Part shown: one piece after another, positions 39,390 through 55,735 of the stretch
Position numbering within the stretch: position 1 is the first letter of the stretch
Layout: every line of letters begins with the position of its first letter
NCBI GenBank assembly: GCA_002366835.1
Contig: DFBZ01000018.1
Location: forward strand, 12,425 to 76,424
Direction: 5' to 3'
Length of the DNA: 64,000 nt
Source: Gammaproteobacteria bacterium UBA3067
Lineage (GTDB): Bacteria; Pseudomonadota; Gammaproteobacteria; Pseudomonadales; UBA3067
The notes under the pieces: model-generated
Databases searched by the model: none
What the model was told of the DNA's origin: nothing
What the model saw: only the letters and a program-made list of their open reading frames with translations
Made by a program: the position numbers and the translations under genes

Positions 39390-39390
39390 C

Positions 39391-40920
39391 ATGTGCAAAC
39401 GAAACTACCAAAACCGCAGCATACAGCTTTTCATATACGTACTCGCTACACTCAGCCTATTTGCCTGCAACGAGCCAAGCCCCAGCAACTCAAATAAACA
39501 ATATCTCGCTGTAGAAGTTAAGGCGCAGAAAACCACTTCCGTAGAAGAAAGCTTCCCTGTTGAAATAGACCGAATTAGTGTCGAAGTCGTTAATGACCAA
39601 GATGAGGTAATCGCCTCAAGTAGTACTGCAGATAACAGCGCCTCTTTTAACTTATCCGTTCCCCGTGACACTCCCTTATCTGTCATTGCATACGCCTACA
39701 GTGGCAATGAGCTACTTTATAAGGGAGTCGACAAGCTCGACCCCCTCACCTTAAACAGCCAAACTACCGTCGAAATAACCTTACAATCACAGGTGACGGT
39801 ATTAGCACCCCCTGACCCGCAAACTGTGACCGATAGCGGGGCCATAGAGCTCAGCCCGCTTATTGATGTTCGGGGGTTAAACGACTCCAGCCTCGCTTAC
39901 GCCATTAATGGCGTAGAAGGCGGCAATGAGACCCTCGGCCTTATTTCAACCTACGGCACTTACACGCCTCCCCCTCATCTACTAGAAACACTGCAAGTAC
40001 AACTCAGCGCCACCCCCATCGCAGCCCCCTCCTTTGCAGAGATTATTGAGGTGGTCATTGAACCCACGCCCATTGATCTGAATTGGTTTACTGATGAGGG
40101 CCTCAGAAGCTGTGTGGACCAACACGAAGCTGAACTCGTTGCAGCACTTACAACCCTCGACTGCTCCCATCGAACGACGGGTCTCAATATCCTATCCATG
40201 CAAGGTTTGGAAAACCTTACTGCATTAAAAGAACTCAATATCAGCAACCAATATATAGAAAGTATTCCGCCCCTAGGTAGTTTGACACTTTTGAACAAAC
40301 TCACCCTAAGCCTCAACCTTCTTGGCGATATAAAAGGCTTGGAATCACTTCCCTCATTGCAAAGTTTAGATTTAAGCTGGAACCCAGGCTTTTATTCGCT
40401 CGATGGTGACAATCCCCTCGACCCACTAATTCCACTAGCCGCCCTTACCTCACTTAAGGAACTGGATCTTTCTTGTGTATTTAATATGACTGAAAACTCT
40501 GTTAGTGCACTACGCAAAAAACTGCCCAATACAGAGATACTCTTCAAATGTTCATATTTATACCCGGAAACCATTTCGATACAGGCGAATGAGTACTTCG
40601 ACTTTAAAGGTTTTATTTCGACAACAGTGCTCAGCGATATTACAAATAAATTAGAACTTTTATCGAGCGACAAAAAAATAGCAGCACAGATTGATTCAAA
40701 TGACAGTGATGTAATTTATTCAGTAGATGAGATCGTGGGGGGTAATGAGAAAATAGGAACAATCTCGAAAACGGGTAAAGATGCAGGCATCTTTTTCTCA
40801 CCCAGAGTTAATAGCAATCAAATCGTAACACTCAGTGCCAGCCTAGAAGAGGCCCCAACATTTAAGGTTGAACTTAATATCGAGATTAAGCCCATTATTA
40901 ACCCACTATCTACATATTGA
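39391..40920 (+). CDS. leucine-rich-repeat (LRR) lipoprotein with flanking Ig-like/beta regions
   Basis: Lipobox 'LATLSLFAC'. LRR block 'LENLTALKELNISNQYIESIPPLGSLTLLNKLTLSLNLLGDIKGLESLPSLQSLDLSWN...LTSLKELDLS'. A repeated motif 'INGVEGGNETLGLISTYGTYTPP' / 'VDEIVGGNEKIGTISKTGKDAGIFFSP' is present. The ATG lies 1 nt after the upstream OMP stop; the ORF-track start at 39271 overlaps that gene. Confidence 0.7.
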   Translation: MCKRNYQNRSIQLFIYVLATLSLFACNEPSPSNSNKQYLAVEVKAQKTTSVEESFPVEIDRISVEVVNDQDEVIASSSTADNSASFNLSVPRDTPLSVIAYAYSGNELLYKGVDKLDPLTLNSQTTVEITLQSQVTVLAPPDPQTVTDSGAIELSPLIDVRGLNDSSLAYAINGVEGGNETLGLISTYGTYTPPPHLLETLQVQLSATPIAAPSFAEIIEVVIEPTPIDLNWFTDEGLRSCVDQHEAELVAALTTLDCSHRTTGLNILSMQGLENLTALKELNISNQYIESIPPLGSLTLLNKLTLSLNLLGDIKGLESLPSLQSLDLSWNPGFYSLDGDNPLDPLIPLAALTSLKELDLSCVFNMTENSVSALRKKLPNTEILFKCSYLYPETISIQANEYFDFKGFISTTVLSDITNKLELLSSDKKIAAQIDSNDSDVIYSVDEIVGGNEKIGTISKTGKDAGIFFSPRVNSNQIVTLSASLEEAPTFKVELNIEIKPIINPLSTY

Positions 40921-40952
40921 CAGCGAGGGTGGCGCTTTTTCAGGGGTTAAGG

Positions 40953-41053
40953 GCTGCATTGGCTACGACTGGCACTCCTTTTACTGCGCCTTTGTGGAGG
41001 AAAAAAAGAAATAGCTACGCCCAGCCCTTTTACGTTTTAACGACGCATTTAGT
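40953..41053. repeat. ~100-bp near-identical copy of the spacer between immunity paralogues 2 and 3 (43219-43320)
   Basis: 'gcattggctacgactggcactcc-ttttactgcgcctttgtggaggaaaaaaagaaatagctacgcccagcccttttacgttttaacgacgcatttagtcc' versus the same string at 43219-43320, with a few mismatches. Confidence 0.85.
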
Positions 41054-42083
41054 CCTCTATAGTCATTTTTTCTAGAACGACTGCTTCTTTCTCATTGCTT
41101 AACTGGGCGGCAAATTTTTGAATACCATTAATTTTTCGTGTATGAAACTCAAGTTTCAAAGGGGTTAATCGGTCCGGAGATAATTTTTTAAAGGCCGCAA
41201 ATGTTTCTGCTTCGTCGAAATTGAAGACAGGGTACTCGGTATCACCGCCTGGGTTATTCCAAATATAAAAAACCCGTCGAGGAACGGGACGCAGGGCACT
41301 GGCAGTCTCTTCATCCAGCGGGTAGCGAAAACAATCTTCTTCGCCATTGAAATAGTGAATACTTTCCACGAAAGGAGGAGGATTATCAGCAATAATCACA
41401 GGCTGCCAAGGATAATGCACGCGGTAGCTGTCCCATAGTTCGAAGGGGATGCCGTTTTGTTTTAGGGTATTGATATTTTCGATGCCAATTGCATCCTTCA
41501 AGCTTTTGTTAATAAACATTTCCCGAGTAATCTCCGGGTTATCAATGATCCGCGCCCAGGGAATATCTTCCGTTTTTTCAGCTTTACCAAAAAAGACTTC
41601 GGTCGTTTTATTCACGCCAAGCAGCCAGACAGCAACACTGCCCCCCGGTGTCACTCCCGCCATAATCCGCTTATAAGTAGTATGCCCCTTTTCTTTGGGG
41701 CTGTAATAACCTTCATTGAACAGGCGTACGATGGTGTCGTAGGGTAGGTCAAACTCACCTTTATAGAAGACATTTTCGGTATAAGAGAAAAACTCAATCT
41801 CCATACGACTGGGTAAAGACTTTAGATCGGGCCCCACAACGTGGGAAGAAACCATGCTTCCCCAGCCGTAATCAATGCGCTTTGAGTTGGGAATATAAAG
41901 GGAATAGCCATCGGGAGCGATAAAAAAGCCACTGATGATTCTCATGGGAAAGTTTTTGGGGGCACTTTCCGTTGCCAGCCAGTCAAATTTAATCACAGGA
42001 GCACCTCCACAGGCGGATAACAAGGAACCAAAGACAAAAGTACCTGCTAAGGCTAAGCGTTTTTTTACTAATTTAAAGCTCAT
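41049..42083 (-). CDS. lipoprotein, putative Tle1-cognate immunity paralogue 1
   Basis: Lipobox 'GSLLSACGG'. ~80-85% identical by eye to the two upstream paralogues. Downstream of a DUF2235 lipase in a vgrG island. Confidence 0.55.
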   Translation of the reverse strand: MSFKLVKKRLALAGTFVFGSLLSACGGAPVIKFDWLATESAPKNFPMRIISGFFIAPDGYSLYIPNSKRIDYGWGSMVSSHVVGPDLKSLPSRMEIEFFSYTENVFYKGEFDLPYDTIVRLFNEGYYSPKEKGHTTYKRIMAGVTPGGSVAVWLLGVNKTTEVFFGKAEKTEDIPWARIIDNPEITREMFINKSLKDAIGIENINTLKQNGIPFELWDSYRVHYPWQPVIIADNPPPFVESIHYFNGEEDCFRYPLDEETASALRPVPRRVFYIWNNPGGDTEYPVFNFDEAETFAAFKKLSPDRLTPLKLEFHTRKINGIQKFAAQLSNEKEAVVLEKMTIED

Positions 42084-42178
42084 AATAACTGTTGTTGGTA
42101 TCCCTATTGCCCGCTGTGAAAATGCGCGTGAAACTGCAGCTAAGTACCAACAATCAACACGCCCTATTTTCTTATATT

Positions 42179-43219
42179 TTAACGTCTCGCCTTGCCCATA
42201 TACATTTTCTCTAAAACCACCACTTCTTCTTCATTACTTAACTGAACGGCATATTTTCGGACACCATCAATTTTTCGCGTGTAAAACTCCAGTTTTAAGG
42301 GGGTTAAACCATCGGGGCACAGCCTTTTAAAGGCTGCAAACATTTCTGCTTCGTCAAAGTTGAACTTGGGGTAACTGACTTTACCATCGGGATTGTCCCA
42401 AATATAATAAAGCCTTCTAGGGATGGGGCGTAGTGTACTGGGAGCGGGTTCATCCAGCGGATAACGTAAGTTGTCTTCCTCACCATTGAAATAGAATATC
42501 CCATGAATAAAGGGCGGGGGATTATCAGCAATAATCACAGGCTGCCAAGGGTAATGCACGCGGTAGCTGTCCCATAGTTCGAAGGGGATGCCGTTTTGTT
42601 TTAGGGCATTGATATTTTCAATACTAACCGCATCATTTAAAACTTCGTGAACAAACTCCTCTCGTGTAATCTCTGAGCCGTCATAAATTCGCGTCCAGGG
42701 AATATCCTGCGTTCTATCAGCTTTACCAAAAAAGACTTCGGTCTTCTTATTAGTCCCAAGCAACCAAACAGCGACACTACCCCCTGGTGCCACCCCGACC
42801 ATAATCCGTCCATAAGTAGTACGCCCCTCCTCTTTAGAGCTGTAATAGCCGTCATTAAACAGGCGTACGATGGTGTCGTAGGGTAAGTCAAACTCACCCT
42901 TATAGAAGACATTTTCAGTATAAGAAAAAAACTCGATCTCCATACGACTGGGTAAAGATTTTAGATCGGACCCCACGACGTGGGAGGAAATCATGCTTCC
43001 CCAACCGGAATGAATGGTTTTTTCGTTCGGGATATAAAGGGAATAACCATCGGGAGAGATAAAACTGCCACGGACAATTTCCATGGGGTAGTTTTTTGGC
43101 GCACTTTCCGTTGCCAGCCAGTCAAATTTAGTCACAGGGGTGACTCCACAGGCGGACAGCAAAGGGGCGAAGACCAACGTGCCTGCCAAGGATAAACATC
43201 TTTTTAAGGTTTTAAGCAT
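42179..43219 (-). CDS. lipoprotein, putative Tle1-cognate immunity paralogue 2
   Basis: Lipobox 'APLLSACGV'. Collinear with paralogues 1 and 3. The start was chosen at 'MLKTLKR'; the ORF track starts at 43240. Confidence 0.55.
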   Translation of the reverse strand: MLKTLKRCLSLAGTLVFAPLLSACGVTPVTKFDWLATESAPKNYPMEIVRGSFISPDGYSLYIPNEKTIHSGWGSMISSHVVGSDLKSLPSRMEIEFFSYTENVFYKGEFDLPYDTIVRLFNDGYYSSKEEGRTTYGRIMVGVAPGGSVAVWLLGTNKKTEVFFGKADRTQDIPWTRIYDGSEITREEFVHEVLNDAVSIENINALKQNGIPFELWDSYRVHYPWQPVIIADNPPPFIHGIFYFNGEEDNLRYPLDEPAPSTLRPIPRRLYYIWDNPDGKVSYPKFNFDEAEMFAAFKRLCPDGLTPLKLEFYTRKIDGVRKYAVQLSNEEEVVVLEKMYMGKARR

Positions 43220-43313
43220 TGCATTGGCCACGACTGGCACTCCCTTTACTGCGCCTTTATGGAGGAAAAAAAGAAATAGCTACGCCCAGCCCTTTTACGT
43301 TTTAACGACGCAT

Positions 43314-44357
43314 TTAGTCCTCTATAGTCATTTTTTCTAGAACAACTGCTTCTTTCTCATTGCTTAACTGGGCGGAAAATTTTTGAATACCATTAATTTT
43401 GCGTGTATGAAACTCAAGTTTCAAAGGGGTTAATCGGTCCGGAGATAGTTTTTTAAAGGCCGCAAATATTTCTGCTTCGTCGAAATTGAAGACAGGGTAC
43501 TCAGTATCACCGTCTGGGTTATTCCAAATATAATAAACCTCTCGAGGAATGGGGCGCAGAGCGCTTGCAGTTGCTTCATCCAGCGGATAGCGAAAAGAAT
43601 CTTCTTCACCGTTGAAATAATAGATACTTTCCACGAAGGGGGGAGGGTTATCAGCAACAACCACCGGCTGCCAAGGGTAGTGCACGCGGTAACTGTCCCA
43701 TAGTTTAAAGGGAATACCATTTTGTTTTAAGCCATTGATATTTTCAATGCCAATGGCGTCCTCTAAAACTCTGTGAATAAACGTCTCACGTGTGATTTCT
43801 GAGCCATCATAGATTCGCGTCCAGGGAATATCCTGCGTTTTTTCAGCTTTGCCGAAAAAGACTTCTGTCGTTTTGTTCACGCCAGACAGCCAGACGGCGA
43901 CCCCTCCCCCCGGCGTCACCCCAGCCATGATGCTCATATAGGTGGTATGCCCCTCTTCTTTGGAGCTGTAATAGCCGTCATTAAACAGGCGTACAATAGT
44001 ATCGTAGGGTAAGTCAAACTCACCCTTATAGAAGACATTTTCAGTATAAGAAAAAAACTCAATCTCCATACGACTGGGTAAAGATTTTAGATCGGGCCCC
44101 ACCACGTGGGAAGAAACCATGTCCCCCCAACCGTAATGAATAGTTTTTTCGTTCGGGATATAAAGAGAATAGCCATCAGGGGCGATAAAGTAGCCGCTCA
44201 CAATTTCCATGGGATAGTTTTTTGGTGCACTTTCGGTAGCGAACCAGTCAAATTTAGTCACAGGGGTGCCTCCGCAGGCGGATAATAAGGGGCCAAGAAC
44301 AAAGGTCGATACCAAAGCCAAGCCTTGTTTTAGGTTTTTAAATGGGTGATTAACCAC
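43314..44357 (-). CDS. lipoprotein, putative Tle1-cognate immunity paralogue 3
   Basis: Lipobox 'GPLLSACGG'. The GTG start overlaps the Tle1 stop by 8 nt (GTGGTTAA). Confidence 0.55.
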   Translation of the reverse strand: MVNHPFKNLKQGLALVSTFVLGPLLSACGGTPVTKFDWFATESAPKNYPMEIVSGYFIAPDGYSLYIPNEKTIHYGWGDMVSSHVVGPDLKSLPSRMEIEFFSYTENVFYKGEFDLPYDTIVRLFNDGYYSSKEEGHTTYMSIMAGVTPGGGVAVWLSGVNKTTEVFFGKAEKTQDIPWTRIYDGSEITRETFIHRVLEDAIGIENINGLKQNGIPFKLWDSYRVHYPWQPVVVADNPPPFVESIYYFNGEEDSFRYPLDEATASALRPIPREVYYIWNNPDGDTEYPVFNFDEAEIFAAFKKLSPDRLTPLKLEFHTRKINGIQKFSAQLSNEKEAVVLEKMTIED

Positions 44358-45747
44358 GGATAGTTATCCTTTCTCGCTGCCCTTTGCGAATCCTAGGCTT
44401 ATGTGCCGCCAACACCATGTAGCTACGCTGGTAGTGAGCGGAAAAATGTAGCTGCTGATTACGTAAGTCCTTCAGCCAGCTGTAACGGTCGTAACACTTG
44501 GAGCCATGCCAGTCTCCAGCGGCAGATTTATCCTTTTGCGCATACGCGCTTAGATTTTCATACACACCAGAAAGTTGTGTAGGAGGGGCTTCTTTCATTT
44601 GAAATTTGTCTTCTAAAATCATTCCTGTTTCACAAAAAAAATCTGCCATAATATTTAACGGAATTTTAGCATAGCCATTATCTAACCCAGTACGTCGCGA
44701 TTTAAGCCGATGTGGTTCTCGCTGCGGCATTTCACCGTGCAGTGAAATCATTACCTCTAGAGCAGGCGGGCTTTCAATATAGATTTGCTCTTCCGTAAAC
44801 CAGCCTTGGCTCAGTAAATGTTTGCGATCTTTTTCCAAGCTACTTAGGTTCTGGGATTCATTCAGAACTAAGTTTTCTTCAATGTTATTGCGATAGCCAC
44901 CCCCGATATCGGAATGAACCCCCGGCAGAAAAATTTCCCTCCCGCCTTTGCCAATAGCGCTTTTAATAGTGGTGAGGGCAAAGTTACTGCGATGCTCATC
45001 TGCAGCGGCTAGGTGTACCACGGTTTTTACTTCTGGCCGACTCACGGCTTTCAGCTTCAGGCTATTTACATCGTTGTGGCTCAGGCCTTCAGATGAGACG
45101 GTATCATACAAACCCACAAACTCCACCCGTACGTTTTTCTTATCAATCTCAAAACCTTTGGCGCGGATTTTGTCGGCCAAGGGGACAGGTGAAGAAAACA
45201 GGCCACTTTTATCGCTTAAGGTTTTGTGAATAAAATAACGGGCACCGGCTGCCCCACGGCTAAAACCAAAAATATCCAGCACCAGCTCTTCAATAATGGG
45301 GTTTTTCTTTAGCGTGCTCTTAAGTAAATGAACAACCCTATCGACTCCCTTTTCAACCTTTTCCTTCACCCCCGTATCACCTGTGCCAAAAGCAGAGCCT
45401 CTGAAGCTGTCACCTTCTAAATCTTCGGTGCCAGGGCCTTCAATATAGGTGGTTAACAAATACTGATCCTTTCCAAGGGACGTCTTATCAATATAGCTTT
45501 CCATTTTAGCCACATTGGTTTTATCCCCCTCGTAGCTGTTGCCGGCTTTACCAGGTTTCGGCTTGTGCTCCTGATACTTATCGGTGTTCCGCTCCCGCGC
45601 TTCGACATTGGTTCGATTGTTCAAAGTGCCATCGAAAAACACACAAAAGCGGATTTTCACTCTTCGCCGTTTGTCTTTTTTGGGTTTTTCTTCTTGAGGT
45701 GCAGATTCTTCGCTTGCAGAAAAAGCGCCTTCGCCTATATCTGTCAT
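44350..45747 (-). CDS. tle1: DUF2235 alpha/beta hydrolase, T6SS phospholipase effector of the Tle1 type
   Basis: 'RFCVFFDGTLNN', nucleophile elbow 'DIFGFSRGAAGARYF' (GxSxG) and 'LPGVHSDIGGGY' are the DUF2235/Tle1 hallmarks. Located in a vgrG/PAAR operon and followed by lipoprotein genes. Confidence 0.8.
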   Translation of the reverse strand: MTDIGEGAFSASEESAPQEEKPKKDKRRRVKIRFCVFFDGTLNNRTNVEARERNTDKYQEHKPKPGKAGNSYEGDKTNVAKMESYIDKTSLGKDQYLLTTYIEGPGTEDLEGDSFRGSAFGTGDTGVKEKVEKGVDRVVHLLKSTLKKNPIIEELVLDIFGFSRGAAGARYFIHKTLSDKSGLFSSPVPLADKIRAKGFEIDKKNVRVEFVGLYDTVSSEGLSHNDVNSLKLKAVSRPEVKTVVHLAAADEHRSNFALTTIKSAIGKGGREIFLPGVHSDIGGGYRNNIEENLVLNESQNLSSLEKDRKHLLSQGWFTEEQIYIESPPALEVMISLHGEMPQREPHRLKSRRTGLDNGYAKIPLNIMADFFCETGMILEDKFQMKEAPPTQLSGVYENLSAYAQKDKSAAGDWHGSKCYDRYSWLKDLRNQQLHFSAHYQRSYMVLAAHKPRIRKGQRERITIRG

Positions 45748-46865
45748 GGAATTTTAGCCTCCCGTGCTGGACTAGCTTTTGGGTTAACAGTGGGATGTTG
45801 GGGTATTTTTTCCAGCAGTAGCGCAGCACGCCAAGCGTTATCCGATGAGGCATAAACAAGGTGAGCTGCTGGGCCCTTAATTTTTCCTAGGTCTTCCGCC
45901 GCAAGAGCAATAAGCGCCGCGCCGGTGGCGGCACCTAGATCACCGTAGCTGTCTGCTGGGTGATGGTGTTGCACGCCTTGGCAAAAGCAGGATTCGTTGC
46001 GTGTCATGGCGACGCCATATTCTTTGGCCCAGTAGTGCTCACCATTCATGCTGGAATAAATGCTGTGTATGCCGCCACCTTCATAAGCCTGTAATGCTTG
46101 CAAAAAGGCCTGGTGCAGGCCTTCGCCACGGTAAACATGTTCGCTATTGAGGTGGCCAGGTTCCTGCGCTACACCTGCTGGGTTTAAGGCGATGATATGG
46201 CCATCCTGAACATGGGCTTTTTCTGGGTGCCGCGTGAGTAGAAAAAAGCAGGCCCCTTCTCCGGGTGCAAAGCCATTTTGTACGCCAGGGGCCAAAGCTC
46301 GTTCGGCCTCATCGAGGTAAGCAAGGGTGGAATAATCCCAGTAGCTATCGCTGGCACCCACCAGTACATAATCTTGCTGGAGGTCGTAAAGGAAACGTTG
46401 GGCTAAATCCAGGCTTTGCAATACCGCCGCCCGGCCTGTATGAACAGTGCGCACCTGCCGGCGATCAATGGGAAGTTTTGCCTGGTTAATCAGGTTATCC
46501 AGCATGACTTCAGGGCTAATATTGGGGGTATGGGGCAAGCTTTCTGCGAATGAAAGCACCAAGGGCACCGGCTCTGATACCGGGTGACGCTGAAATACCT
46601 GCGATGCAGCCAGGATGGCCATTTTAATTATACGATCGTAGCGCTCGCAACATTCGCTACCTTGGTCTATTTCGAGTTCAAAGCCGGTAAAGATTTCCTC
46701 GGGGATGCCTGTCATGGTGATGAAGCCATCTTGGAGGTTCTCATAGTCAGACACACGATAGGCACTAATACCCGCCCTGAGGGAAGCGGCCGTCATTTCA
46801 GTGCTGCTTCCCAAGGGGCTGAGCATGCCGGTGGCTGCGAGGTAGAGTTTTTGGGTATGGCTCAT
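45744..46865 (-). CDS. beta-ketoacyl-synthase/thiolase-fold protein lacking the catalytic Cys-His-His (pseudoenzyme; candidate T6SS adaptor)
   Basis: KAS-like blocks: 'LYLAATGMLSPLG', 'YVLVGASDS', 'NGFAPGEGACFFLLTR', 'GDLGAATGAALIALA'. The expected 'TAC(A/S)' reads 'HTGRAAV', 'HGTGT' reads 'SMNGEH', and 'GH' reads 'GD'. The stop overlaps the tle1 start (ATGA). Confidence 0.6.
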   Translation of the reverse strand: MSHTQKLYLAATGMLSPLGSSTEMTAASLRAGISAYRVSDYENLQDGFITMTGIPEEIFTGFELEIDQGSECCERYDRIIKMAILAASQVFQRHPVSEPVPLVLSFAESLPHTPNISPEVMLDNLINQAKLPIDRRQVRTVHTGRAAVLQSLDLAQRFLYDLQQDYVLVGASDSYWDYSTLAYLDEAERALAPGVQNGFAPGEGACFFLLTRHPEKAHVQDGHIIALNPAGVAQEPGHLNSEHVYRGEGLHQAFLQALQAYEGGGIHSIYSSMNGEHYWAKEYGVAMTRNESCFCQGVQHHHPADSYGDLGAATGAALIALAAEDLGKIKGPAAHLVYASSDNAWRAALLLEKIPQHPTVNPKASPAREAKIP

Positions 46866-46968
46866 TCAGTCGATCCTAAGGAGCAGGGGCTTTGGTGTTG
46901 CTTGTTAAAATACGCGTTTACAGTGCCTGGATACTCACGAGTGGCCTCACCACGTATGAATTTAAACC

Positions 46969-47349
46969 TTAACCCATAATGTTTTTATCATTATGAAGAA
47001 GCGGGTCGCCTAGGCGGCAAGCATTTTTCCCTTCAAATTTTATATCAAATGAATACATCATAAATTCGCAGGTCCCTTTGGTTTTGCCGCTGACCACACC
47101 GCCGATTGAACCCGCCTCGTCCCCTGTAGAGGTGGAATACTTCGCACCCTTTACCATTGGCATTTCGCCATCAACGGTTACTGTGCTGGGGCCGCCGCTG
47201 GTGTCAGAAGATTTGCCCGTATTCGGATAAGGGATAGGCACCGGGCCACCAGGAGTGGGTGTTTTGCAGACATCGGGAAAGACAGTGCTTACACCACCAC
47301 TGCCTTTGTGAACGATGCCTCTGCCATTAGCAAATGTAGTTTGTGCCAC
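46969..47349 (-). CDS. PAAR-like DUF4150 protein (stand-alone, no toxin extension)
   Basis: 'VHKGSGGVSTVFPDVCKTPTPGGPVPIPYPNTGKSSD...VTVDG...STGDEAG..GGVVSG...F..YSFDIKFEGKNACRLGDPLLHN' matches DUF4150. 126 aa, GTG start. Confidence 0.75.
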   Translation of the reverse strand: MAQTTFANGRGIVHKGSGGVSTVFPDVCKTPTPGGPVPIPYPNTGKSSDTSGGPSTVTVDGEMPMVKGAKYSTSTGDEAGSIGGVVSGKTKGTCEFMMYSFDIKFEGKNACRLGDPLLHNDKNIMG

Positions 47350-47582
47350 TTTAGTTTTTCTCCTGCGTGATTATTCAGTGTTGTTTAATTTGAACGCTCA
47401 CATTTCGAGATTTATATTTTTCGAAACGTCACTTATAAACTAGGGGGAACGCTGTCCGCCACTTGAGTTGGATGAAGTTAAATCCAACCGTTTTGATATA
47501 CGCTTTATTATTTTAAGTTTGGCTCCACGAAATCAGATATGATTTTAACCCTTAACGTAGGACCCATAATCAAGGGCTAAAT

Positions 47583-47609
47583 GTTGGGTTTCGCTACGCT
47601 CTACCCAAC
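47583..47609. repeat. REP-like palindromic element
   Basis: 'gttgggt-ttcgctacgctct-acccaac' is a 7-bp perfect stem. The sequence resembles a REP-type element widespread in marine gammaproteobacteria. There is a single copy in this window. Confidence 0.4.
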
Positions 47610-47648
47610 CTACAGGGTATTTTCGAGCATACTAAACCCCTACACTTG

Positions 47649-47684
47649 AGGTAAGAAATAAGCTAACCAACTTATTTCTTACCT
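47649..47684. terminator. 14-bp perfect hairpin just downstream of the HEAT-like gene
   Basis: 'aggtaagaaataag' - loop 'ctaaccaa' - 'cttatttcttacct'. The T-tract follows on the plus strand only, so terminator function for the minus-strand operon is uncertain. Confidence 0.35.
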
Positions 47685-47696
47685 TATTTTTCGCAA

Positions 47697-48899
47697 TTAA
47701 ATGCGTAGTCTTCTGGGTGCTTCATCAGTAAATGTCACGCCGTAATTTAACTGCAGCTCCAACCGTGCTGCTTCCCTTTGGGTTTGTTTGCCTTGTTTTA
47801 GAATTTTATTCAGGCTTTCTTCGTTAATGATTTCTCCGGCCAAGTAACGCTTTTCTGCCACAAAATTCTGACAACTTCTCTCATACCATTGGCGTATTTT
47901 TATATCATCGGGCCAAGGTAGTTTCCGATCTTTATCGTCTAACTCAACGGCATCCAAGATAACAGATTCTTTTGTCATCTTATTTTTTTCCAAATCAAGG
48001 CCAGTGATCATGAAGAATGAATGTCCGGCTAATCGAGCATGGCTTTCGTTTGACATCTGCTTTATCAACCAGGGTAAGGCGGTGGAATCACCCAATACTC
48101 CTATAGCACTGATTAACTTTCTTAAATTACCAGGGGTTTCACCTAGCTCTTGCGCCCAGGCTTTTGCTTCAGTTTTTGGCAAAGCCCGAAACGCAAAGTT
48201 TATAGCGTTATCTGCAAGGGCTACGTTGTCAAAAATAATGGGCTTTAAAAGACTGGCCTGAGTTTTATCCCCCAGTAACAGTGAAGCGAAAATGCTTGAA
48301 CACGCAATTTGTGCATTGTCATCTTTCACATGACACTGAATCTTTGGCAGCAAATCTTTACGTTGCATCATCCCTGCTGCGCGAATCAGACAAGAAAAAT
48401 ATTCTGGTGTGTTTTTTAACTGCTGATTGTTAAGCGCTGTATCTACTACTTCACCGCAATGAACACCGTGCAAAGCACAGGCGCAAACCCCCAAGCACAA
48501 ATAAGCCGGATTGTTCGCCTGCATTAATTTGCTTATCCCGCTTTTCACCCTTCCCAGGGGCAACCATGATAGTGCGGAAAGTAGAGCCTGGTAGGTTTGC
48601 TGGTTAAGGCAGCCTGTTTCAATTGCTTTTTTTATCCACTCATCTTTGTCACTGCTAAACGCCAGCACCACCGCTGTAAAAACCTCACCAGAATCTTCGA
48701 ACTGCAATGCCGCCTCGCAGGCTTTCCAGCCTGCCTCCCCATGTAGAAGCAAACCTTCCAGCTGCGCGTCAATGCGCCCTTCTAATTCAATGAGTCTCGC
48801 AAGTTCACAATCAGGGCTATTGATGGCCTGATCATGTAGCAACCAAAAAAAAGCGGCGTTTTCGGCCATTTTCATCGGTATTTCGTCAAAAGAATTCAT
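47697..48899 (-). CDS. helical-repeat (HEAT-like) protein, possibly TIGR02270 family, T6SS-island associated
   Basis: All-alpha repetitive sequence. The C-terminal 'IGVLGDSTALPWLIKQMSNESHARLAGHSFFMITGLDL' resembles TIGR02270-type proteins (from memory). The ATG at 48899 overlaps the DUF2169 stop (ATGA); the ORF track starts at 48989. Confidence 0.45.
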   Translation of the reverse strand: MNSFDEIPMKMAENAAFFWLLHDQAINSPDCELARLIELEGRIDAQLEGLLLHGEAGWKACEAALQFEDSGEVFTAVVLAFSSDKDEWIKKAIETGCLNQQTYQALLSALSWLPLGRVKSGISKLMQANNPAYLCLGVCACALHGVHCGEVVDTALNNQQLKNTPEYFSCLIRAAGMMQRKDLLPKIQCHVKDDNAQIACSSIFASLLLGDKTQASLLKPIIFDNVALADNAINFAFRALPKTEAKAWAQELGETPGNLRKLISAIGVLGDSTALPWLIKQMSNESHARLAGHSFFMITGLDLEKNKMTKESVILDAVELDDKDRKLPWPDDIKIRQWYERSCQNFVAEKRYLAGEIINEESLNKILKQGKQTQREAARLELQLNYGVTFTDEAPRRLRI

Positions 48900-49933
48900 G
48901 CGACACCCTGATGTTTTTGGCTCAAATAATTGATATCGACTTGCTCGATATTTAACGTTTCTTTGTCGCAGGGTGTGCAGGCTCGCCATACAACAGAGAA
49001 CCGGTTCTGGTCGGGTTCAATAAGTACGGTTTCCATAAACAAAGGGGGTTTCTCTTTTCGATTTTTTATATGGACAAGCACTTCAAGAGGGTTTACTGGC
49101 AGGCAAAAATTCAGCTCGCCAAAGGGGCTTGCATTTTTAATCTGAACGGATTCGCTTCCCTCCAAATATTTCTCGGTAATTAAGTCCTGATGCGCCATAT
49201 TAAAAAAACGCTTATCGAAATCATCTGGAAGATAAGGGGCGGTATTTTTTTTCCAAACTTCGTCGTAGGTTCCCGCGTACTGAAACCTTGGTTGCCAAGC
49301 CGGGGAGATAAAACCAAAACAGGCAGGTGCTGGTTGGTCATGGCTGGTGGAAATTAGCTGCCTGGGGTCTTCCAAATTTGGCAGCTGGATTCCATTTATT
49401 TCCTTGCCTTCTCGTTTTCCGATAAAACCCTTACCAATCGGGTTACGGGGATCACTCAGAGTAGTGGTTTCATTTTTATCTTTTTCTTGGGTTATATGCA
49501 TGCCGCCATAAGCCTTCTCATAAACCAGGGGCATTTTTTCAAAGGGAGCTGAGGGACTTATGTTTCCGTTTTTCCACTCGCGATCACCAAATACAGCAAG
49601 CTCTAATTTTTGTCTGGCGACTTGTAACGAAACGTTCAGATGGCTGATTAGAGGGGTATTTTCCGCTTGAGCGTTACCGATAAGAATAATATCTGTTGCA
49701 GCTTTACCCAGGTGCATATCAGATGCATATTTTATACTCGACTGAGCGGGTTCGCCCCAATAAACGTCCCCCTGAAACGGTGGAATTTGTGTTTCCAGTA
49801 ATTTCACTTTTGGTAGAATTTCAAAACTGGCTTTCAAAATAATATAGAGGGTATCGATACCCTTTTCGTTTGGAAGCACGGTAATCGCTGGTGAAATGGC
49901 GGTATTATTTTTTAACTGCAACATGGGGGACAA
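48896..49933 (-). CDS. DUF2169-family T6SS accessory/adaptor protein
   Basis: The N-terminus 'LKNNTAISPAITVLPNEKGIDTLYIILKASFEI', together with size and position after vgrG, fits DUF2169. TTG start at 49933 or ATG at 49924. Confidence 0.65.
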   Translation of the reverse strand: MSPMLQLKNNTAISPAITVLPNEKGIDTLYIILKASFEILPKVKLLETQIPPFQGDVYWGEPAQSSIKYASDMHLGKAATDIILIGNAQAENTPLISHLNVSLQVARQKLELAVFGDREWKNGNISPSAPFEKMPLVYEKAYGGMHITQEKDKNETTTLSDPRNPIGKGFIGKREGKEINGIQLPNLEDPRQLISTSHDQPAPACFGFISPAWQPRFQYAGTYDEVWKKNTAPYLPDDFDKRFFNMAHQDLITEKYLEGSESVQIKNASPFGELNFCLPVNPLEVLVHIKNRKEKPPLFMETVLIEPDQNRFSVVWRACTPCDKETLNIEQVDINYLSQKHQGVA

Positions 49934-49979
49934 CTACTTCTATGTGAGAAAAACTTAACTGCTTAACACTAACTTGCAA

Positions 49980-50534
49980 TCAGTTTATTTGAACTGACCC
50001 GCCTAAAATTCGATGAGTACCACTTGATCGACTGGAAATATAGCTGCCCCTTAAAAGTATTTTTCCATCTTTGCTTAGGGTGATACTTGCTTTGCCACAT
50101 TTGAGTGTCATTTGTTCTTTTGCTTCGATACAGTGTTCTTTTCCATCGACGATAATATCTAGACTTTTTTCTTCTGCCTCTGTCGAGGGCGAAGGTAAGT
50201 TTTGATCTAACCATTCCTCGCTGGACTTCTGAGTATTGCTTCCATTTTCCAGGACATCCATCATTTCACAATGAATGATGCCGATAATCACCGGTTGACT
50301 GAGGTCTCCACCATTAAAAAGTAATGCGGCTTCTCTGCCAATATTTTTCGCTTCAATGGGAATTGTCGCTAACGCTAACACATGCCTCCCAGAGCGATTA
50401 TGGGGATAGTCAACATACACGCCACTTTGATCAACTTTTTTAATGTAGCCAATAACAACTTCTCCAGGAGAAATTGCCGAGGAGTGTTCAGTCGTGACTT
50501 TTCTTCCTGAAATAGTGTCGTGATCTTTTATCAA
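49980..50534 (-). CDS. small VgrG-associated protein with a gp5/VgrG-like C-terminal beta-helix rung
   Basis: 184 aa. The TTG start overlaps the vgrG stop (TTGA). The C-terminus 'MTLKCGKASITLSKDGKILLRGSYISSRSSGTHRILGGSVQIN' parallels the VgrG end 'VFKTGNAQIVMKKNGDITLKGKNISVQGSGDVVLKGAKVTTN'. Confidence 0.5.
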   Translation of the reverse strand: MIKDHDTISGRKVTTEHSSAISPGEVVIGYIKKVDQSGVYVDYPHNRSGRHVLALATIPIEAKNIGREAALLFNGGDLSQPVIIGIIHCEMMDVLENGSNTQKSSEEWLDQNLPSPSTEAEEKSLDIIVDGKEHCIEAKEQMTLKCGKASITLSKDGKILLRGSYISSRSSGTHRILGGSVQIN

Positions 50535-52555
50535 TTTGTTGTCACCTTTGCGCCTTTGAGAACTACATCGCCGGAGCCTTGTACTGAGATATTTTTACCT
50601 TTTAATGTTATATCGCCATTCTTTTTCATAACAATTTGCGCGTTACCGGTTTTAAATACAATTTCATCCTCAGCCACCATCACGATTTTTTTAGCTTGTA
50701 CGGAATAATTTTCGGTTACTGTCAGGATCGATTCGCCGCCTACGTTTTCCGAGAGATCTTTTCCTATGTTTATGCTTTCGTTGCTGCCAATGCTGATAGA
50801 TAGATCTGTTTCCACAGAAATATCCTGATTTTTTCCTATGCTGACAGTTTGATTATTGCCTATGGTAATGGTTTGGTTATTCCCAATGCTGCTACTTTGG
50901 TCATTCCCTACTGTATTGGTTTCATTGTTGCCAATATCTTTTGTTCTGTCATTCCCGATGGTATTAAATTGATCATGTTCAACAGCAGTCGATTGATCAT
51001 TTTCTACGTGACTGTTGTAGTCTTTCTCAGCATGAACATAGACTTCTTCGCTATCTTTTTTATCTTCAAAACGAATTTCATTAAAGTTTTGAGGTGTGCC
51101 GCCTTTAGAGCTTCGGCTTTTAATGCCACTTTGGGTTTTATTTGCGGGTAATTCATAAGGGGGCATGTTGTCATCGTTATAGACTCGACCGGTAATAAGT
51201 GGTCTATCTGGGTCCCCTTCCAGAAAATCCACAATCACTTCTTGCCCTATACGGGGAAGGTGAACCCCTCCCCAATTATTCCCTGCCCAGATATGGGCGA
51301 CACGAATCCAGCAGGAGCTATTTTCATTTGCTTCACCATAACGGTCCCAATGAAACTGCACTTTTACACGGCCATATTCGTCAGTATGAATTTCTTCTCC
51401 TTGAGGGCCAACCACAATGGCGGTTTGAATACCCCGCACGATCGGTTTTTCGGTGTCGCGAGGCGTACGAAATGCTTGCTCAGCATCGATAACCCCTATA
51501 GATATAGTAAAATTGGTTTCGTTGTCATTTTGGACCTTCGATTCATATTCTTGAGGACCTAGGTGGTACGAGGCGGTCGAGATCAGGTATTGCCTATTTT
51601 GGTCTTCTCGAAGAAAGTGGTTTGTCAGTGTAAACAAGCTGCCTACAAAAAGGCCTCCTGCATTGCCCTCCCCTTGCGCTGTTTCATGTTGTGCCTGTAG
51701 CTCTTCGATGCGGTTACGTGCGTAGTTTTCGCCATCAGAACTTTCAACATATGCACCAGGGTAATCATAAATTTCGTAATTTGCTTTTTCATGTTCACGC
51801 GGTTGCGTTGCACTAACCAGAAGGTTAGCCTTCGGTTTTTTGAAATCAAATCCATTCAGCACGTAGGCTCCAGGCTGTATGTGCTGGCTTAGTGTCCACG
51901 AATACAGATGGTCTCGCTCACGGCGTTTATTTTCTTCCAGTGGGTAGTAGGGTACTTCTTCGTAACCGGGCACAGCTTCATGGGCATTAACTGAATCGGC
52001 CAGCACCAGGGTGTGCTTCCTGTCTTCGTGTTTAAAATAGTAATAGATTCCCTCTTGCTCTAAGAGGCGGCTGATAAAATTAAAGTCCGTTTCACGGTAT
52101 TGAACACAATACTCCCACTCACGGTGAGAGCCCGTTAGGGATTCTTCAAAATCGCTAAAACCATGTTCTCGGAAAACGTCTTTTACAATGTCCGGCACGG
52201 TTTTATTTTGAAATATACGGCTGTCTGCGTTGCGCGTTAAGAACCAAAACCAAGGGCGAAGTGTTGCCCGATATAGCGATAAATCACCATGGCTTCCTGC
52301 CTGGGTGAAACCACTAACAATGCCATTAAAATAACGAACTTCCTTATCTAGTCGTTGATATTGCACGGTCATACTTTGGCCAAGCATTTCCTGAAAGTTA
52401 ATTTCAGGGTTGGCGCTCAACAGGTCTAGATCAAACTTAAAGAGCTCACCCAGCTTTTCATTGGCGGTCATACGGTGAAACAGCAAAACATCGTCGTCTA
52501 AGATGGTTTTTACTGAGATGCTTCTATTAGCTTGTGTTGCCTTCAAACTTGACAT
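50531..52555 (-). CDS. vgrG: type VI secretion spike protein VgrG (no C-terminal effector domain)
   Basis: 674 aa. gp27-like N-terminus ('VKTILDDDVLLFHRMTANEKLGELFKFDLDLLS', 'YCVQYRETDFNFISRLLEQEGIYYYF'), gp5 OB region ('VVGPQGEEIHTDEYGRVKVQFHWDR') and C-terminal beta-helix repeats. Confidence 0.9.
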   Translation of the reverse strand: MSSLKATQANRSISVKTILDDDVLLFHRMTANEKLGELFKFDLDLLSANPEINFQEMLGQSMTVQYQRLDKEVRYFNGIVSGFTQAGSHGDLSLYRATLRPWFWFLTRNADSRIFQNKTVPDIVKDVFREHGFSDFEESLTGSHREWEYCVQYRETDFNFISRLLEQEGIYYYFKHEDRKHTLVLADSVNAHEAVPGYEEVPYYPLEENKRRERDHLYSWTLSQHIQPGAYVLNGFDFKKPKANLLVSATQPREHEKANYEIYDYPGAYVESSDGENYARNRIEELQAQHETAQGEGNAGGLFVGSLFTLTNHFLREDQNRQYLISTASYHLGPQEYESKVQNDNETNFTISIGVIDAEQAFRTPRDTEKPIVRGIQTAIVVGPQGEEIHTDEYGRVKVQFHWDRYGEANENSSCWIRVAHIWAGNNWGGVHLPRIGQEVIVDFLEGDPDRPLITGRVYNDDNMPPYELPANKTQSGIKSRSSKGGTPQNFNEIRFEDKKDSEEVYVHAEKDYNSHVENDQSTAVEHDQFNTIGNDRTKDIGNNETNTVGNDQSSSIGNNQTITIGNNQTVSIGKNQDISVETDLSISIGSNESINIGKDLSENVGGESILTVTENYSVQAKKIVMVAEDEIVFKTGNAQIVMKKNGDITLKGKNISVQGSGDVVLKGAKVTTN

Positions 52556-52860
52556 TAATTCCTCTCAACTCCCCGTTCGGCAATGCTGCTCTAACGCCTT
52601 GGGGTGAAATCCGAGCAGGCTGAAATTTTTCTAGCTCAAACTACAAGTGAACGGAAGATAGGCTAAAGCATGGTCAGCTGAAATGCCATTGTAAATTTTC
52701 CACGAAGTGATTCAGGCTCTGTGGGAGTATTGCTTTAAATAGCAGGAAGAACTGCGAAAGGAGCGCCACTCGGAACCGGTAACGCTTTAAGTACAAGGTA
52801 CTCAGGACATAACTCTAGCTAATAGGGGCTTCCTTGCCCCAAAAAAACCGAGCAACTAGT

Positions 52861-53187
52861 TCAGGCTTGTACTTGAACCGCTCCATTTACAACCTTAACG
52901 GGGTAGGTTTCGAGCTGAACGGATTCATCCTCTAAACATTTGCCGCTGCTCAACACAAAGTGCTGTTTGTATACGGGGGAAGCCACAACAATCTCACCTT
53001 TGAGGTCCCCTACCAAACCCCGTGAAAGCACGTTGGCTTTACTGAAGGGGTCGTGGTTATCCACTGCATACAACTCTTCACCCTCGCCAAGGCGGAAGAT
53101 GGCGACCTGCTTTTCATTCACCAGCGCACACACACCACTATCAGGTAAAACTTGATCTAATTGACAAACTTCTAACCACTTACTCAT
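52861..53187 (-). CDS. nirD: nitrite reductase [NAD(P)H] small subunit
   Basis: 'MSKWLEVCQLDQVLPDSGVCALVNEKQVAIFRL...VDNHDPFSKANVLSRGLVGD' is Rieske-like NirD. The start was set at ATG 53187; the ORF track starts at 53283. Confidence 0.85.
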   Translation of the reverse strand: MSKWLEVCQLDQVLPDSGVCALVNEKQVAIFRLGEGEELYAVDNHDPFSKANVLSRGLVGDLKGEIVVASPVYKQHFVLSSGKCLEDESVQLETYPVKVVNGAVQVQA

Positions 53188-53197
53188 TACTTTCACC

Positions 53198-55735
53198 TTA
53201 AGCTGTTTCGACTTCTTGAAGGGGAGCCTTTTCTTCTTCGCGAGCAGGTCGAATCTGCTCACGCTCTCGGACAAAGACCACATTGGAGTCGGCCTTCTCG
53301 CTGTTTACAAAATGAGTAAAACGCTGCACTGCTTTTTCATCCTCGATAGTGCGCTTCCATTCACATTCATAGTTATCGATCACGATCTGCATTTCGGCTT
53401 CGAGCTTCTCGCCAAGGCCCAGGCTGTCATTGATGACGACATCCTGAAGATAGGCCAAACCGCCTTCCAGATTTTCCATCCATACCGAGGTGCGTTGCAA
53501 ACGATCGGCGGTGCGAATATAGAACATGAAAAAACGATCGATGTATTTAATCAGTGTTTCTTTATCAAGATCCGACGCGAAAAGATCACCATGGCGTGGT
53601 TTCATACCGCCGTTGCCACAAACGTACATATTCCAGCCATTTTCGGTGGCAATAATACCCACGTCTTTACTCTGGGCTTCGGCACATTCGCGTGTACAAC
53701 CGGATACGGCGAGTTTTACTTTATGGGGGGAACGCAGACCGCGATAGCGTTTTTCCACTTCAATAGCCAGACCGACACTATCGTCCATTCCGTATCGGCA
53801 CCAGGTACTTCCTACGCAAGATTTTACTGTGCGCATGGCTTTGCCATAGGCATGGCCAGTTTCAAAACCCGCATCAACCAGTTCTTTCCAAATGTGTGGT
53901 AACTGTTCCATACGGGCGCCAAACATATCGATACGTTGGCCACCGGTAATTTTGGTGTAAAGGTCGTATTTCTTGGCCACTTCGCCAATAACGATCAGCC
54001 CTTCGGGTGTGATTTCACCGCCTGGAATACGAGGAACCACTGAGTAAGTGCCATCTTTCTGCAAATTGCCCAAGAAGTTGTCGTTGCTATCTTGTAGCGG
54101 AGTATTCTCTTTCTCAAGAACATACTTGTTCCAGCAGGACGCAAGAATGGAACCCACCGTTGGACGACAAATATCACAACCATGGCCTTTACCGTGTTTA
54201 GCGATCAGCTCTCCAAAGCTGCGAATTTCTCCAACACGGACAATATCGTAAAGCTCTTGCCGCGTATGATTAAAATGCTCACAGATGCTTTTATCTACTT
54301 CAACACCACGCTTTTCCAACTCGGAATCAAATACCTGCTTCACTAGGGCAGCACAGCCTCCGCAGCCTGTTGCAGCGGTGGTGCAAGATTTCAATTCAGC
54401 AAGTTCGGTGACTCCACCTTCAATAGCGCAGCATAAATCACCTTTGGTCACGTTATTACAGGAACAAATTTGTGCGGTTTCAGGCAGGGCATCGACCCCA
54501 AGACCAGCCGGTGCGCCATCGCTATGAGGAAGAATTAACGCATCGGGGCTTTCTGGAATAGCCATTTCATTGAGCATTAGCTGCAATAAGGTGCCATATT
54601 CTTCAGCATCGCCCACCAGCACTGCACCCAGTAATTTTTTATTATCGCCGCTAACGACGATCTTTTTGTAAACCTGCTTGATTTCATCGTTATAGCTGAA
54701 AGAACGGCTACCTTCGGTGCGAGCATGGGCATCGCCTACGCTGGCTACATCCACTCCCATCAACTTAAGCTTGGTGCTCATATCCGCACCGGCAAACTGA
54801 GCCTCTTTACCCACCAGATGATCGGCTGCAACTTTCGACATTTGCCAACCTGGTGCGATCAAACCAAAAATTCGCTGCTCCCACAGGGCGCATTCGCCGA
54901 TGGCATAAACATCTTCATCGGATGTCTGGCAGTAGTTATTGATGGTAATACCACCGCGTGGGCCAATCTCTAGGCCGGAGCTTCTCGCCAATTCATCTTG
55001 AGGACGAATACCTGCTGAGAAAACGATCAAATCCGTATTCAGCTCTTCCCCATCCGCAAAGCACATTTTGTGGGTGGCATCATCACCGTCGATAATTTCC
55101 TTGGTGTTTTTTTCGGTATGAACACAAACACCTAGTTCTTCGATTTTAGTGCGCAATACGGCACCACCACCGTCATCCACCTGAACAGCCATAAGTCGCG
55201 GCGCGAACTCTACCACGTGGGTCTGCAAACCGAGGTCTTTCAAGGCTTTAGCCGCTTCCAAACCCAGCAACCCCCCACCCACCACCGCGCCTACTTTGGC
55301 ATTTTTTGCGGCAGCAGCAATTTTATCCAGATCATCCAGGGTGCGATAAACAAAACAGTTATCTCGCTCGTGACCAGGTACAGGAGGAACAAAGGGGAAA
55401 GAACCCGTTGCCAGAATAAGCTTGTCGTAGTTTATCTCGACGCCATTGGCTGATTTAACCGTTTTAGTGGCCAGATCTATTTCAGTGGCTTTATCTTCAA
55501 GATAAACCTGAATATCATTTTCTTCGTAAAACCCTGGCTTCACTAAAGAAAGGTCATCAGCACTGTTGCCAGAGAAGTAAGAAGTGAGATGCACCCTATC
55601 GTAAGCCAACTTTGACTCTTCACAGAAAGTGGCGATCTCAAACTGTTTGTTCTCATCATTGCTCACCAGCTCTTCTATAAAGCGGTGTCCAACCATACCG
55701 TTTCCGATCACAACTACTTTTTGCTTACTGCTCAC
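53198..55735 (-). CDS. nirB: nitrite reductase [NAD(P)H] large subunit
   Basis: 845 aa, GTG start. FAD/NAD motifs 'VVVIGNGMVGHRF' and 'VVGGGLLGLEAA'. BFD-like 2Fe-2S Cys motifs. Sirohaem/4Fe-4S motif 'SGCTRECAEA...CGNGG'. Confidence 0.9.
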   Translation of the reverse strand: MSSKQKVVVIGNGMVGHRFIEELVSNDENKQFEIATFCEESKLAYDRVHLTSYFSGNSADDLSLVKPGFYEENDIQVYLEDKATEIDLATKTVKSANGVEINYDKLILATGSFPFVPPVPGHERDNCFVYRTLDDLDKIAAAAKNAKVGAVVGGGLLGLEAAKALKDLGLQTHVVEFAPRLMAVQVDDGGGAVLRTKIEELGVCVHTEKNTKEIIDGDDATHKMCFADGEELNTDLIVFSAGIRPQDELARSSGLEIGPRGGITINNYCQTSDEDVYAIGECALWEQRIFGLIAPGWQMSKVAADHLVGKEAQFAGADMSTKLKLMGVDVASVGDAHARTEGSRSFSYNDEIKQVYKKIVVSGDNKKLLGAVLVGDAEEYGTLLQLMLNEMAIPESPDALILPHSDGAPAGLGVDALPETAQICSCNNVTKGDLCCAIEGGVTELAELKSCTTAATGCGGCAALVKQVFDSELEKRGVEVDKSICEHFNHTRQELYDIVRVGEIRSFGELIAKHGKGHGCDICRPTVGSILASCWNKYVLEKENTPLQDSNDNFLGNLQKDGTYSVVPRIPGGEITPEGLIVIGEVAKKYDLYTKITGGQRIDMFGARMEQLPHIWKELVDAGFETGHAYGKAMRTVKSCVGSTWCRYGMDDSVGLAIEVEKRYRGLRSPHKVKLAVSGCTRECAEAQSKDVGIIATENGWNMYVCGNGGMKPRHGDLFASDLDKETLIKYIDRFFMFYIRTADRLQRTSVWMENLEGGLAYLQDVVINDSLGLGEKLEAEMQIVIDNYECEWKRTIEDEKAVQRFTHFVNSEKADSNVVFVREREQIRPAREEEKAPLQEVETA

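Follow-up and report, generated by a model that had tools for sequence, protein, structure and literature searches.

In type VI secretion systems (T6SS), effector loading is understood through a few adaptor families, namely DUF4123 (Tap/Tec/Tla1), DUF1795 and DUF2169. To our knowledge, no role has been experimentally defined for two further proteins encoded in clusters of the vgrG1b type, the thiolase-like TvpD and the TIGR02270 HEAT protein. [quoted passage not shown] Sachar et al. (2025) described a "synteny type A", in which DUF2169 is encoded together with DUF6484, thiolase-like and armadillo-like genes and DUF4150, and showed that DUF2169 chaperones the PIPY domain (PMC11883445). Monlezun et al. 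(2026) defined a "Class II Tvp" group made up of a TvpC-like DUF6484 protein, TvpA and TvpD (PRK06147), proposed a pre-complex whose VgrG mimic is later swapped for VgrG, and presented an AlphaFold model that places TvpD on the PAAR domain (PMC13373197). In the described cases of all three kinds the toxin is fused to the PIPY domain. Here, we analysed a stretch of 64,000 nucleotides of Gammaproteobacteria bacterium UBA3067 (contig DFBZ01000018.1, positions 12,425 to 76,424), referred to as the window, in which ten intact, co-directional minus-strand open reading frames (ORFs; 41049-52555) form a vgrG-to-immunity island with a stand-alone PIPY gene, a gene for a β-ketoacyl-acyl carrier protein synthase (KAS)-like protein and a separate gene for a Tle1 phospholipase.

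Tle1 enzymes are known to be loaded either by direct binding to a C-terminal extension of VgrG, as in enteroaggregative Escherichia coli (EAEC), or through a DUF4123 adaptor, as with Tla1 of P. aeruginosa. Large surveys associate DUF2235 toxins with DUF4123 (PMC7714669), and an adaptor role for PRK06147 was put forward by Liu et al. (2020), who also saw it fused to TIGR02270 (PMC7714669). DUF2931 is an experimentally validated Tle1 immunity family, as found for Tle1Vc of Vibrio cholerae (PMC10395195; also PMC13133936). The island shares with the characterised Tle1 systems, namely EAEC Tle1-VgrG1 (6SJL), P. aeruginosa Tle1-Tla1(DUF4123)-VgrG4a and V. cholerae Tle1Vc-VgrG1E1-Tli1, a DUF2235 enzyme with a GxSxG motif and a Ser-Asp-His triad, linkage to vgrG, and periplasmic lipoprotein immunity, which belongs to DUF2931 as in V. 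cholerae. Unlike these systems, it carries Tvp/PIPY-type loading genes and lacks both DUF4123 and a VgrG extension. The C-terminus of its VgrG is a gp5-like β-prism with no effector- or adaptor-binding extension (the DUF2345/TTR extension is absent, DUF2345 scoring 16.4 bits against a cutoff of 30.7), and a profile search for DUF4123 gave no match in any island protein, while two control loci (L017 and L026) each scored 94 bits. Therefore, the known routes of Tle1 loading are absent from the island.

With the vgrG1b, type A and Class II Tvp clusters, the island has in common VgrG, DUF6484, a single-domain DUF2169, a thiolase-like PRK06147 homologue (in the island, a divergent one), DUF4150/PIPY, HEAT and immunity genes, and a direct vgrG1b-type analogue in a metagenomic relative (L002; vgrG-DUF6484-DUF2169-KAS-PIPY::Tox-GHH2) encodes products 25-60% identical to the window proteins. 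In vgrG1b (Tse7/Tsi7), PIPY forms the N-terminus of a nuclease, whereas the PIPY protein of the window stands alone, with no toxin fusion of the kind found in the PIPY effectors Tse7, PefE and VP1415. The window also differs from vgrG1b in its separate Tle1 lipase, for which a periplasmic action is predicted, in its three DUF2931 lipoproteins as immunity, and in its KAS-like gene, which follows PIPY, is predicted to be coupled to tle1 and encodes a protein scoring below the PRK06147 cutoff. In Serratia marcescens, the Class III Tvp system (VgrG1, TvpAB, TvpB, TvpC and Paar1) likewise has a stand-alone DUF4150-type PAAR protein and a DUF2169 chaperone, and its VgrG-mimicking TvpC nucleates the pre-complex (PMC13373197). 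In contrast, the window has DUF6484, KAS-like and HEAT genes in place of pentapeptide-repeat TvpB/TvpAB and a DUF3540-type TvpC, and its effector is an identifiable cargo lipase.

These comparisons bear on a first-pass annotation of the window, made by a model from the letters alone, which had placed ten co-directional genes on the minus strand. All ten were found where it had placed them, profile searches assigned VgrG, DUF2169, DUF4150 and DUF2235 to the products concerned, the TTGA, ATGA and 8-nt overlaps that it had read at the gene junctions are all present, and a gap that it had put at about 350 bp measures 347 bp. The likeness to PA0095-PA0101 that it had drawn is borne out by the component families (PMC11872809), as is its view of a toxin-less PAAR-like protein beside a separate lipase gene by the domain-only PIPY protein. 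The HEAT-like call was upheld by a TIGR02270 score above the cutoff and by a solenoid in the AlphaFold2 (AF2) model, and the guess of a KAS-fold pseudoenzyme agrees with the FabF/FabB-type fold found by Foldseek and with the loss of the catalytic Cys. The 184-aa product that it had called a β-helix protein is a DUF6484 protein (PF20093), which the literature describes as an OB fold with a short β-prism. The suggestion that the module was undescribed held in part. The accessory set is already known as type A (PMC11883445) or Class II Tvp (PMC13373197); our literature search found no description of a naked PIPY gene with, next in line, a KAS-like gene that is coupled to a Tle1 cargo, and no Tle1 cargo described in a type A or Class II cluster. 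The separate Tle1 cargo with a toxin-less PIPY and a divergent TvpD-like protein is a new variant.

The KAS-like protein had no sequence match in the PDB at E ≤ 1, so its fold was established from an AF2 model (predicted local distance difference test score, pLDDT, 88.5) with Foldseek, which matched it to FabF/FabB at a template-modelling (TM) score of ~0.7 and E ~1e-16; the sequence identity to these enzymes is 12-17%. By using hhalign with a manually entered FabF sequence, FabF Cys164 was placed opposite Arg145 of the KAS-like protein, and the tripeptide G144-R145-A146 is invariant in 40 KAS-like homologues. This alignment covered the N-terminal half only, pairing the C-terminal half with FabF gave nothing meaningful, and the catalytic His positions were not reliably aligned, so the claim is restricted to the Cys-to-Arg replacement. 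Judged by this replacement of a catalytic Cys by an invariant Arg, the protein is a pseudoenzyme with a thiolase/KAS fold, probably acting as a structural protein rather than as an enzyme. No acyl carrier protein or fatty-acid synthesis genes adjoin its gene. The match to NF004798/PRK06147 is full-length and lies below the curated cutoff, and the Tle1-linked KAS-like proteins as a group score 162-184 bits on this model, compared with 416 bits for the canonical KAS that is encoded beside PIPY::Tox-GHH2 in L002. The canonical KAS of L002 and the Tle1-linked KAS of the window are ~26% identical, and the catalytic Cys is absent in both. The Tle1-linked proteins thus form a divergent TvpD/PRK06147-like subfamily. 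PRK06147-like proteins as a whole comprise 976 cluster representatives at E ≤ 1e-30.

Among the spike and chaperone-type proteins, the DUF6484 protein resembles VgrG itself: over the final 56 aa of the two proteins the identity is 34% (E=8e-7), and residues 436-461 in the OB fold of VgrG align with the OB region of the DUF6484 protein. This protein seems to imitate the VgrG tip, in agreement with the published view of DUF6484 as a short VgrG-tip mimic (PMC13373197). In the 345-aa DUF2169 protein, PF09937 spans residues 26-317 and no other domain was found, including a pentapeptide-repeat extension; its start is probably the ATG at 49924, and the L002 orthologue has 342 aa. The PIPY protein consists of the cone domain only, with no toxin domain, and domain-only PIPY proteins also occur in 15 other loci. 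Its VPIPYPN ("PIPY") motif, of the P(I/V)P(Y/F) type, is invariant in 16 orthologues of 126-127 aa, whose identity of 66-95% compares with ~40% for VgrG and 32-47% for Tle1 across relatives. The HEAT protein is an all-helical solenoid in its AF2 model (pLDDT 92.3), which gave weak, generic ARM/HEAT matches in Foldseek; the protein itself has no Pfam match, and its homologues carry HEAT_2.

The catalytic triad of Tle1, S163 in G161-F-S163-R-G165, D215 and H278, is invariant in 28 homologues. The DUF2931 lipoproteins encoded behind it score 93-104 bits on PF11153, each with an LLSAC lipobox, and are 75-85% identical to one another with ratios of nonsynonymous to synonymous substitution rates (dN/dS) of 0.14-0.21 (copy b versus a, 78% identity and 0.145; copy c versus a, 85% and 0.142). 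The three immunity copies are diverging and still under constraint. The copy number varies, with three in the window and in Agarilytica (L004), one in L002 and four in L019, and in L091 two DUF2931 genes accompany a tandem of three tle1-like genes. In most KAS-linked Tle1s, the sequence starts as M-x-x-[I/L/F]-G-E, and an acidic/Lys-rich linker leads on to the catalytic domain (residues 1-30 in the window, 45658-45747); the DUF4123-linked and Bacteroidota Tle1s mostly lack this motif. It could be a loading tag or recognition signal, tracking KAS linkage in a manner confounded by phylogeny. A 312-aa ORF after the KAS gene of L015 was considered as a new effector carrying the tag and rejected, as it looks like the 5′ end of a tle1 disrupted by an insertion: residue 64 onwards of the enzyme is encoded 3.7 kb further downstream (L015, 6276-11137), with a transposase-like fragment and other ORFs in between.

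GTDB representative genomes were scanned with a Tle1 alignment, and the window proteins were mapped onto the resulting 83 Tle1-relative loci (80 listed loci together with earlier fetched ones, without the duplicates L001 and L003). In 17 of these 83 loci, tle1 has a KAS-like gene directly upstream of it, and the full set of vgrG, DUF6484, DUF2169, PIPY, HEAT, KAS, Tle1 and DUF2931 is present in nine, both counts being among the matches listed. The neighbourhood survey, a step that the first-pass annotation had proposed, showed that naked PIPY, HEAT, KAS, Tle1 and DUF2931 recur together in at least 17 other loci, with carriers in Agarilytica rhodophyticola (CP020038.1, a complete genome), Kangiella, Cellvibrio, Thiotrichaceae, other Gammaproteobacteria and one Desulfobulbaceae metagenome-assembled genome (MAG). 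Three further KAS-like homologues on long contigs all lie in Tle1 loci with the same gene set, one of them (L091) without a recognisable vgrG, and two of these loci also have KAS directly upstream of tle1. No useful correlation was found between KAS identity and Tle1 identity across loci. The common order is DUF2169, PIPY, HEAT, KAS and Tle1, with an overlapping HEAT-KAS junction; in the window and in L002, HEAT and PIPY are swapped, with a variable spacer between them.

At ~88% nucleotide identity, L002 matches the island in its eight gene families, in their order and in their site between nirBD and a leucine-rich repeat (LRR)/autotransporter pair. Between the window and L002, dN/dS ranges from 0.06 to 0.27 across the eight shared genes (nirB, 0.014), which indicates that the island is under purifying selection; the two fastest-evolving genes, HEAT (0.27) and Tle1 (0.25), have similar rates. 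The canonical vgrG1b-type cluster of L002 (16298-21401; vgrG, DUF6484, DUF2169, PRK06147 and PIPY::Tox-GHH2) is a second cluster located just beyond the LRR/autotransporter pair; it is absent from the window, where similarity stops at ~37834.

Departures from the common set were also found. In Aliikangiella (L005), L006 and L024, a KAS-Tle1-DUF2931 trio has neither PIPY nor DUF2169 nor VgrG within 10 kb; HEAT is absent and KAS kept in these trios as well as in L007 and L013. In L093 (8001-10391, P0346), a natural TIGR02270::KAS fusion of 796 aa, whose KAS half is 33% identical to the window protein, follows a naked PIPY gene; behind it, in place of Tle1, lie a Sel1-like and an NlpC/P60 gene, which hints at an exchangeable cargo slot that may hold another effector here. 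Geomonas (L017) and an Alteromonadaceae MAG (L026) have related Tle1s, of 34-38% identity, that lie behind vgrG, a canonical PAAR gene and DUF4123, a setting which indicates that the Tle1/DUF2931 cassette is modular with respect to the loading machinery.

We consider it probable that the island functions as an auxiliary T6SS locus, of the kind known as vgrG1b, type A or Class II Tvp, which provides an alternative VgrG-PIPY spike with Tle1 as non-covalent cargo. DUF6484 would trimerise as a surrogate tip on which the 126-aa PIPY cone would dock, DUF2169 (TvpA) would cover the hydrophobic face of PIPY, and the KAS-like (TvpD-like) and TIGR02270 HEAT proteins would complete the chaperone shell, with the KAS-like protein also tethering Tle1. 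VgrG would then displace DUF6484, and a T6SS encoded at another place in the genome would fire the loaded spike; Tle1 would hydrolyse phospholipids in the prey periplasm, and the three DUF2931 lipoproteins would protect sister cells. We infer all of these protein-protein contacts, the adaptor role of the KAS-like protein included, and the pre-complex is carried over by analogy from Monlezun et al. (2026). A PIPY/Tvp pre-complex in which the KAS-like protein serves as adaptor would in this way probably give Tle1 a third loading route.

We link the KAS-like protein with the effector, and not with the spike, on account of the trios, which lack spike genes; of the distinctness of the Tle1-linked subfamily from the KAS encoded beside PIPY::Tox-GHH2; of the L093 fusion, in which a divergent KAS half precedes Sel1-like and NlpC/P60 genes; and of the position of the gene directly upstream of tle1 in the loci counted above, with the ATGA overlap of the two in the window. 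The HEAT::KAS fusion, together with the overlapping HEAT-KAS junction that is followed by Tle1, suggests that HEAT and the KAS-like protein act as a unit. A more general proposal, which we put forward tentatively and regard as possible rather than likely, is that the Tle1-linked KAS pseudoenzymes, usually paired or fused with TIGR02270 HEAT proteins, are dedicated adaptors by which a toxin-less PIPY spike carries exchangeable cargo effectors. If this is true, the route would be distinct from both the DUF4123 and the VgrG-extension routes, and TvpD-type proteins would generally specify the effector, beyond co-chaperoning PAAR. The locus and its ~18 relatives represent a natural "split" vgrG1b cluster, in which the toxin is off the PIPY tip and kept with the KAS-like gene, and which could separate recognition of the effector from recognition of the tip by the KAS-like and HEAT proteins. 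The arrangement is widespread in environmental Gammaproteobacteria, and A. rhodophyticola is a named species with a complete genome, so the question is possibly open to experiment if the strain is genetically manipulable. In other respects, the parts of the island and its general logic are those usual in auxiliary islands of the T6SS.

Several observations count against the proposed reading. The published Class II TvpD is a PAAR-domain co-chaperone, and the adjacency of KAS and toxin genes could simply be inherited gene order; in L029 and L092, DUF2169 and PIPY flank the Tle1-Tli pair, which does not adjoin the KAS gene; and the best PDB match of the window Tle1 and its closest solved relative is EAEC Tle1 (6SJL, E=5e-26), which binds VgrG directly, as the window enzyme might by analogy. 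Besides, neither convincing promoters (26 promoter-like sites versus 19.3 ± 3.9 in shuffles) nor convincing terminators (24 terminator-like sites versus 16.3 ± 4.2) were found. The first three of these observations, together with the AlphaFold model of TvpD on the PAAR domain (PMC13373197), speak for the main rival, that Tle1 loads directly on VgrG as in EAEC while DUF6484, DUF2169, HEAT and KAS only assemble the VgrG-PIPY spike, the KAS-like protein serving as a PIPY co-chaperone. This rival is weakened by the missing DUF2345/TTR extension, which EAEC VgrG1 uses, and it fits poorly with trios that have no spike gene within 10 kb and with a Tle1-linked KAS subfamily set apart from the KAS beside PIPY-fused toxins; we therefore regard it as unlikely.

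That the TIGR02270 HEAT solenoid, not the KAS-like protein, is the Tle1-binding adaptor strikes us as improbable. α-Solenoids such as the AF2 model shows are typical protein-binding scaffolds, HEAT and Tle1 evolve fastest and at similar rates, and in the usual order the overlapping HEAT-KAS junction leads directly on to Tle1; nevertheless, HEAT is the member that is absent from five loci in which KAS is kept, and in the window the 347-bp gap and two genes separate it from Tle1. We give very little credit to the idea that the island is a remnant without activity, be it for want of a T6SS in the genome or through decay of its genes. What favours it is the lack of core genes nearby. In line with the first-pass annotation, no tss, hcp or clpV gene was recognised among the 38 ORFs of ≥140 aa that were scanned or annotated (five ORFs of ≥150 aa and the ORFs of <140 aa lay outside the scan), an Hcp query gave no match in the 64-kb window, and core genes were likewise absent from ~10 kb past its right end and ~1.5 kb past its left end. 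This agrees with its description of an orphan or auxiliary vgrG-to-immunity island. A remnant is at odds with ten intact ORFs under the constraint measured against their L002 orthologues, with the amplification of immunity to three diverging, constrained copies, with the second vgrG cluster beside the L002 island, and with L090 and L093, where the homologous module has hcp immediately upstream.

Features of the island on the window, with the supporting profile matches
Feature	Coordinates	Strand	Evidence
vgrG, 674 aa	50531-52555	-	TIGR03361 E=8e-203; PF05954, PF04717 and PF22178 also match
DUF6484 protein, 184-aa ORF, TvpC-like	49980-50534	-	PF20093 E=3e-15, 56.9 bits, cutoff 27.6
DUF2169, single-domain, TvpA-type PIPY chaperone	48896-49933	-	PF09937 E=6e-88, 295 bits
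TIGR02270 HEAT/armadillo-like α-solenoid, 400 aa	47697-48899	-	TIGR02270 232.5 bits, cutoff 206.8
Intergenic gap HEAT/PIPY, 347 bp	47350-47696	.	Hairpin and REP-like palindrome inside
Stand-alone PAAR-like protein (DUF4150/PIPY), 126 aa	46969-47349	-	PF13665 Tox-PAAR-like (formerly DUF4150) E=3e-40, 137 bits
KAS-like protein, 373 aa	45744-46865	-	NF004798/PRK06147 E=1.5e-50, 172 bits, cutoff 342
Tle1/DUF2235 phospholipase, 465 aa	44350-45747	-	PF09994 E=9e-22, 78 bits, cutoff 27
DUF2931 lipoprotein copy a (Tli1-type)	43314-44357	-	PF11153 E=5e-28
DUF2931 lipoprotein copy b	42179-43240	-	PF11153 E=1e-29
DUF2931 lipoprotein copy c	41049-42083	-	PF11153 E=2e-26

The starts of the DUF6484, DUF2169 and second lipoprotein genes are ORF-derived and uncertain. 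The vgrG and DUF6484 genes overlap by TTGA (50531-50534), with AAGGTG 8 nt upstream, and the DUF2169 and HEAT genes by ATGA (48896-48899), a junction that needs an internal ATG, which is the recorded start of the 400-aa product (P0241). An ATGA overlap also joins the KAS-like gene to tle1 (45744-45747), by which the two are predicted to be translationally coupled, and tle1 overlaps the first lipoprotein gene (copy a) by 8 nt (44350-44357). Inside the gap between HEAT and PIPY lie a hairpin, whose stem of 16 bp is perfect (47647-47686), and a palindrome resembling repetitive extragenic palindromic (REP) elements, GTAGGTTGGGT...ACCCAAC, at 47583-47613, which occurs once in the window. For two stretches of the gap (47441-47579 and 47649-47689), blastn gave no counterpart in the spacer of L002, which shows that the spacer varies among close relatives. 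The gap may be the boundary of two transcription units.

The sequence has a GC content of ~45% and genes of gammaproteobacterial appearance, and the island is inserted between nirBD, with nirD at 52861-53283, and the LRR/autotransporter pair, whose LRR-protein gene ends at 40920. This pair (37980-40920, plus strand) encodes an autotransporter β-domain protein of 469 aa and then an LRR protein with a lipobox-like N-terminus; it adjoins the island in L002 too and has no T6SS hallmarks. The remaining genes of the window are housekeeping or unrelated ones, such as cca, folK, plsY, serA, rnr, nirBD and a giant sensor kinase gene. The last is a 2228-aa ORF (6502-13188, plus strand) with Ser/Thr kinase, AAA_16, GAF, PAS and other sensor domains, as taken from the precomputed annotation of an identical gene in L086. 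A tRNA-Leu(CAG) gene lies at 34092-34178, and a match to group II intron D1-D4 (RF02005 in Rfam, 126.7 bits, E=1e-35) at 35257-35480 on the plus strand. No reverse-transcriptase ORF of ≥150 aa was found near this match, and the next ORF (35799-36608) encodes an Ion_trans channel.

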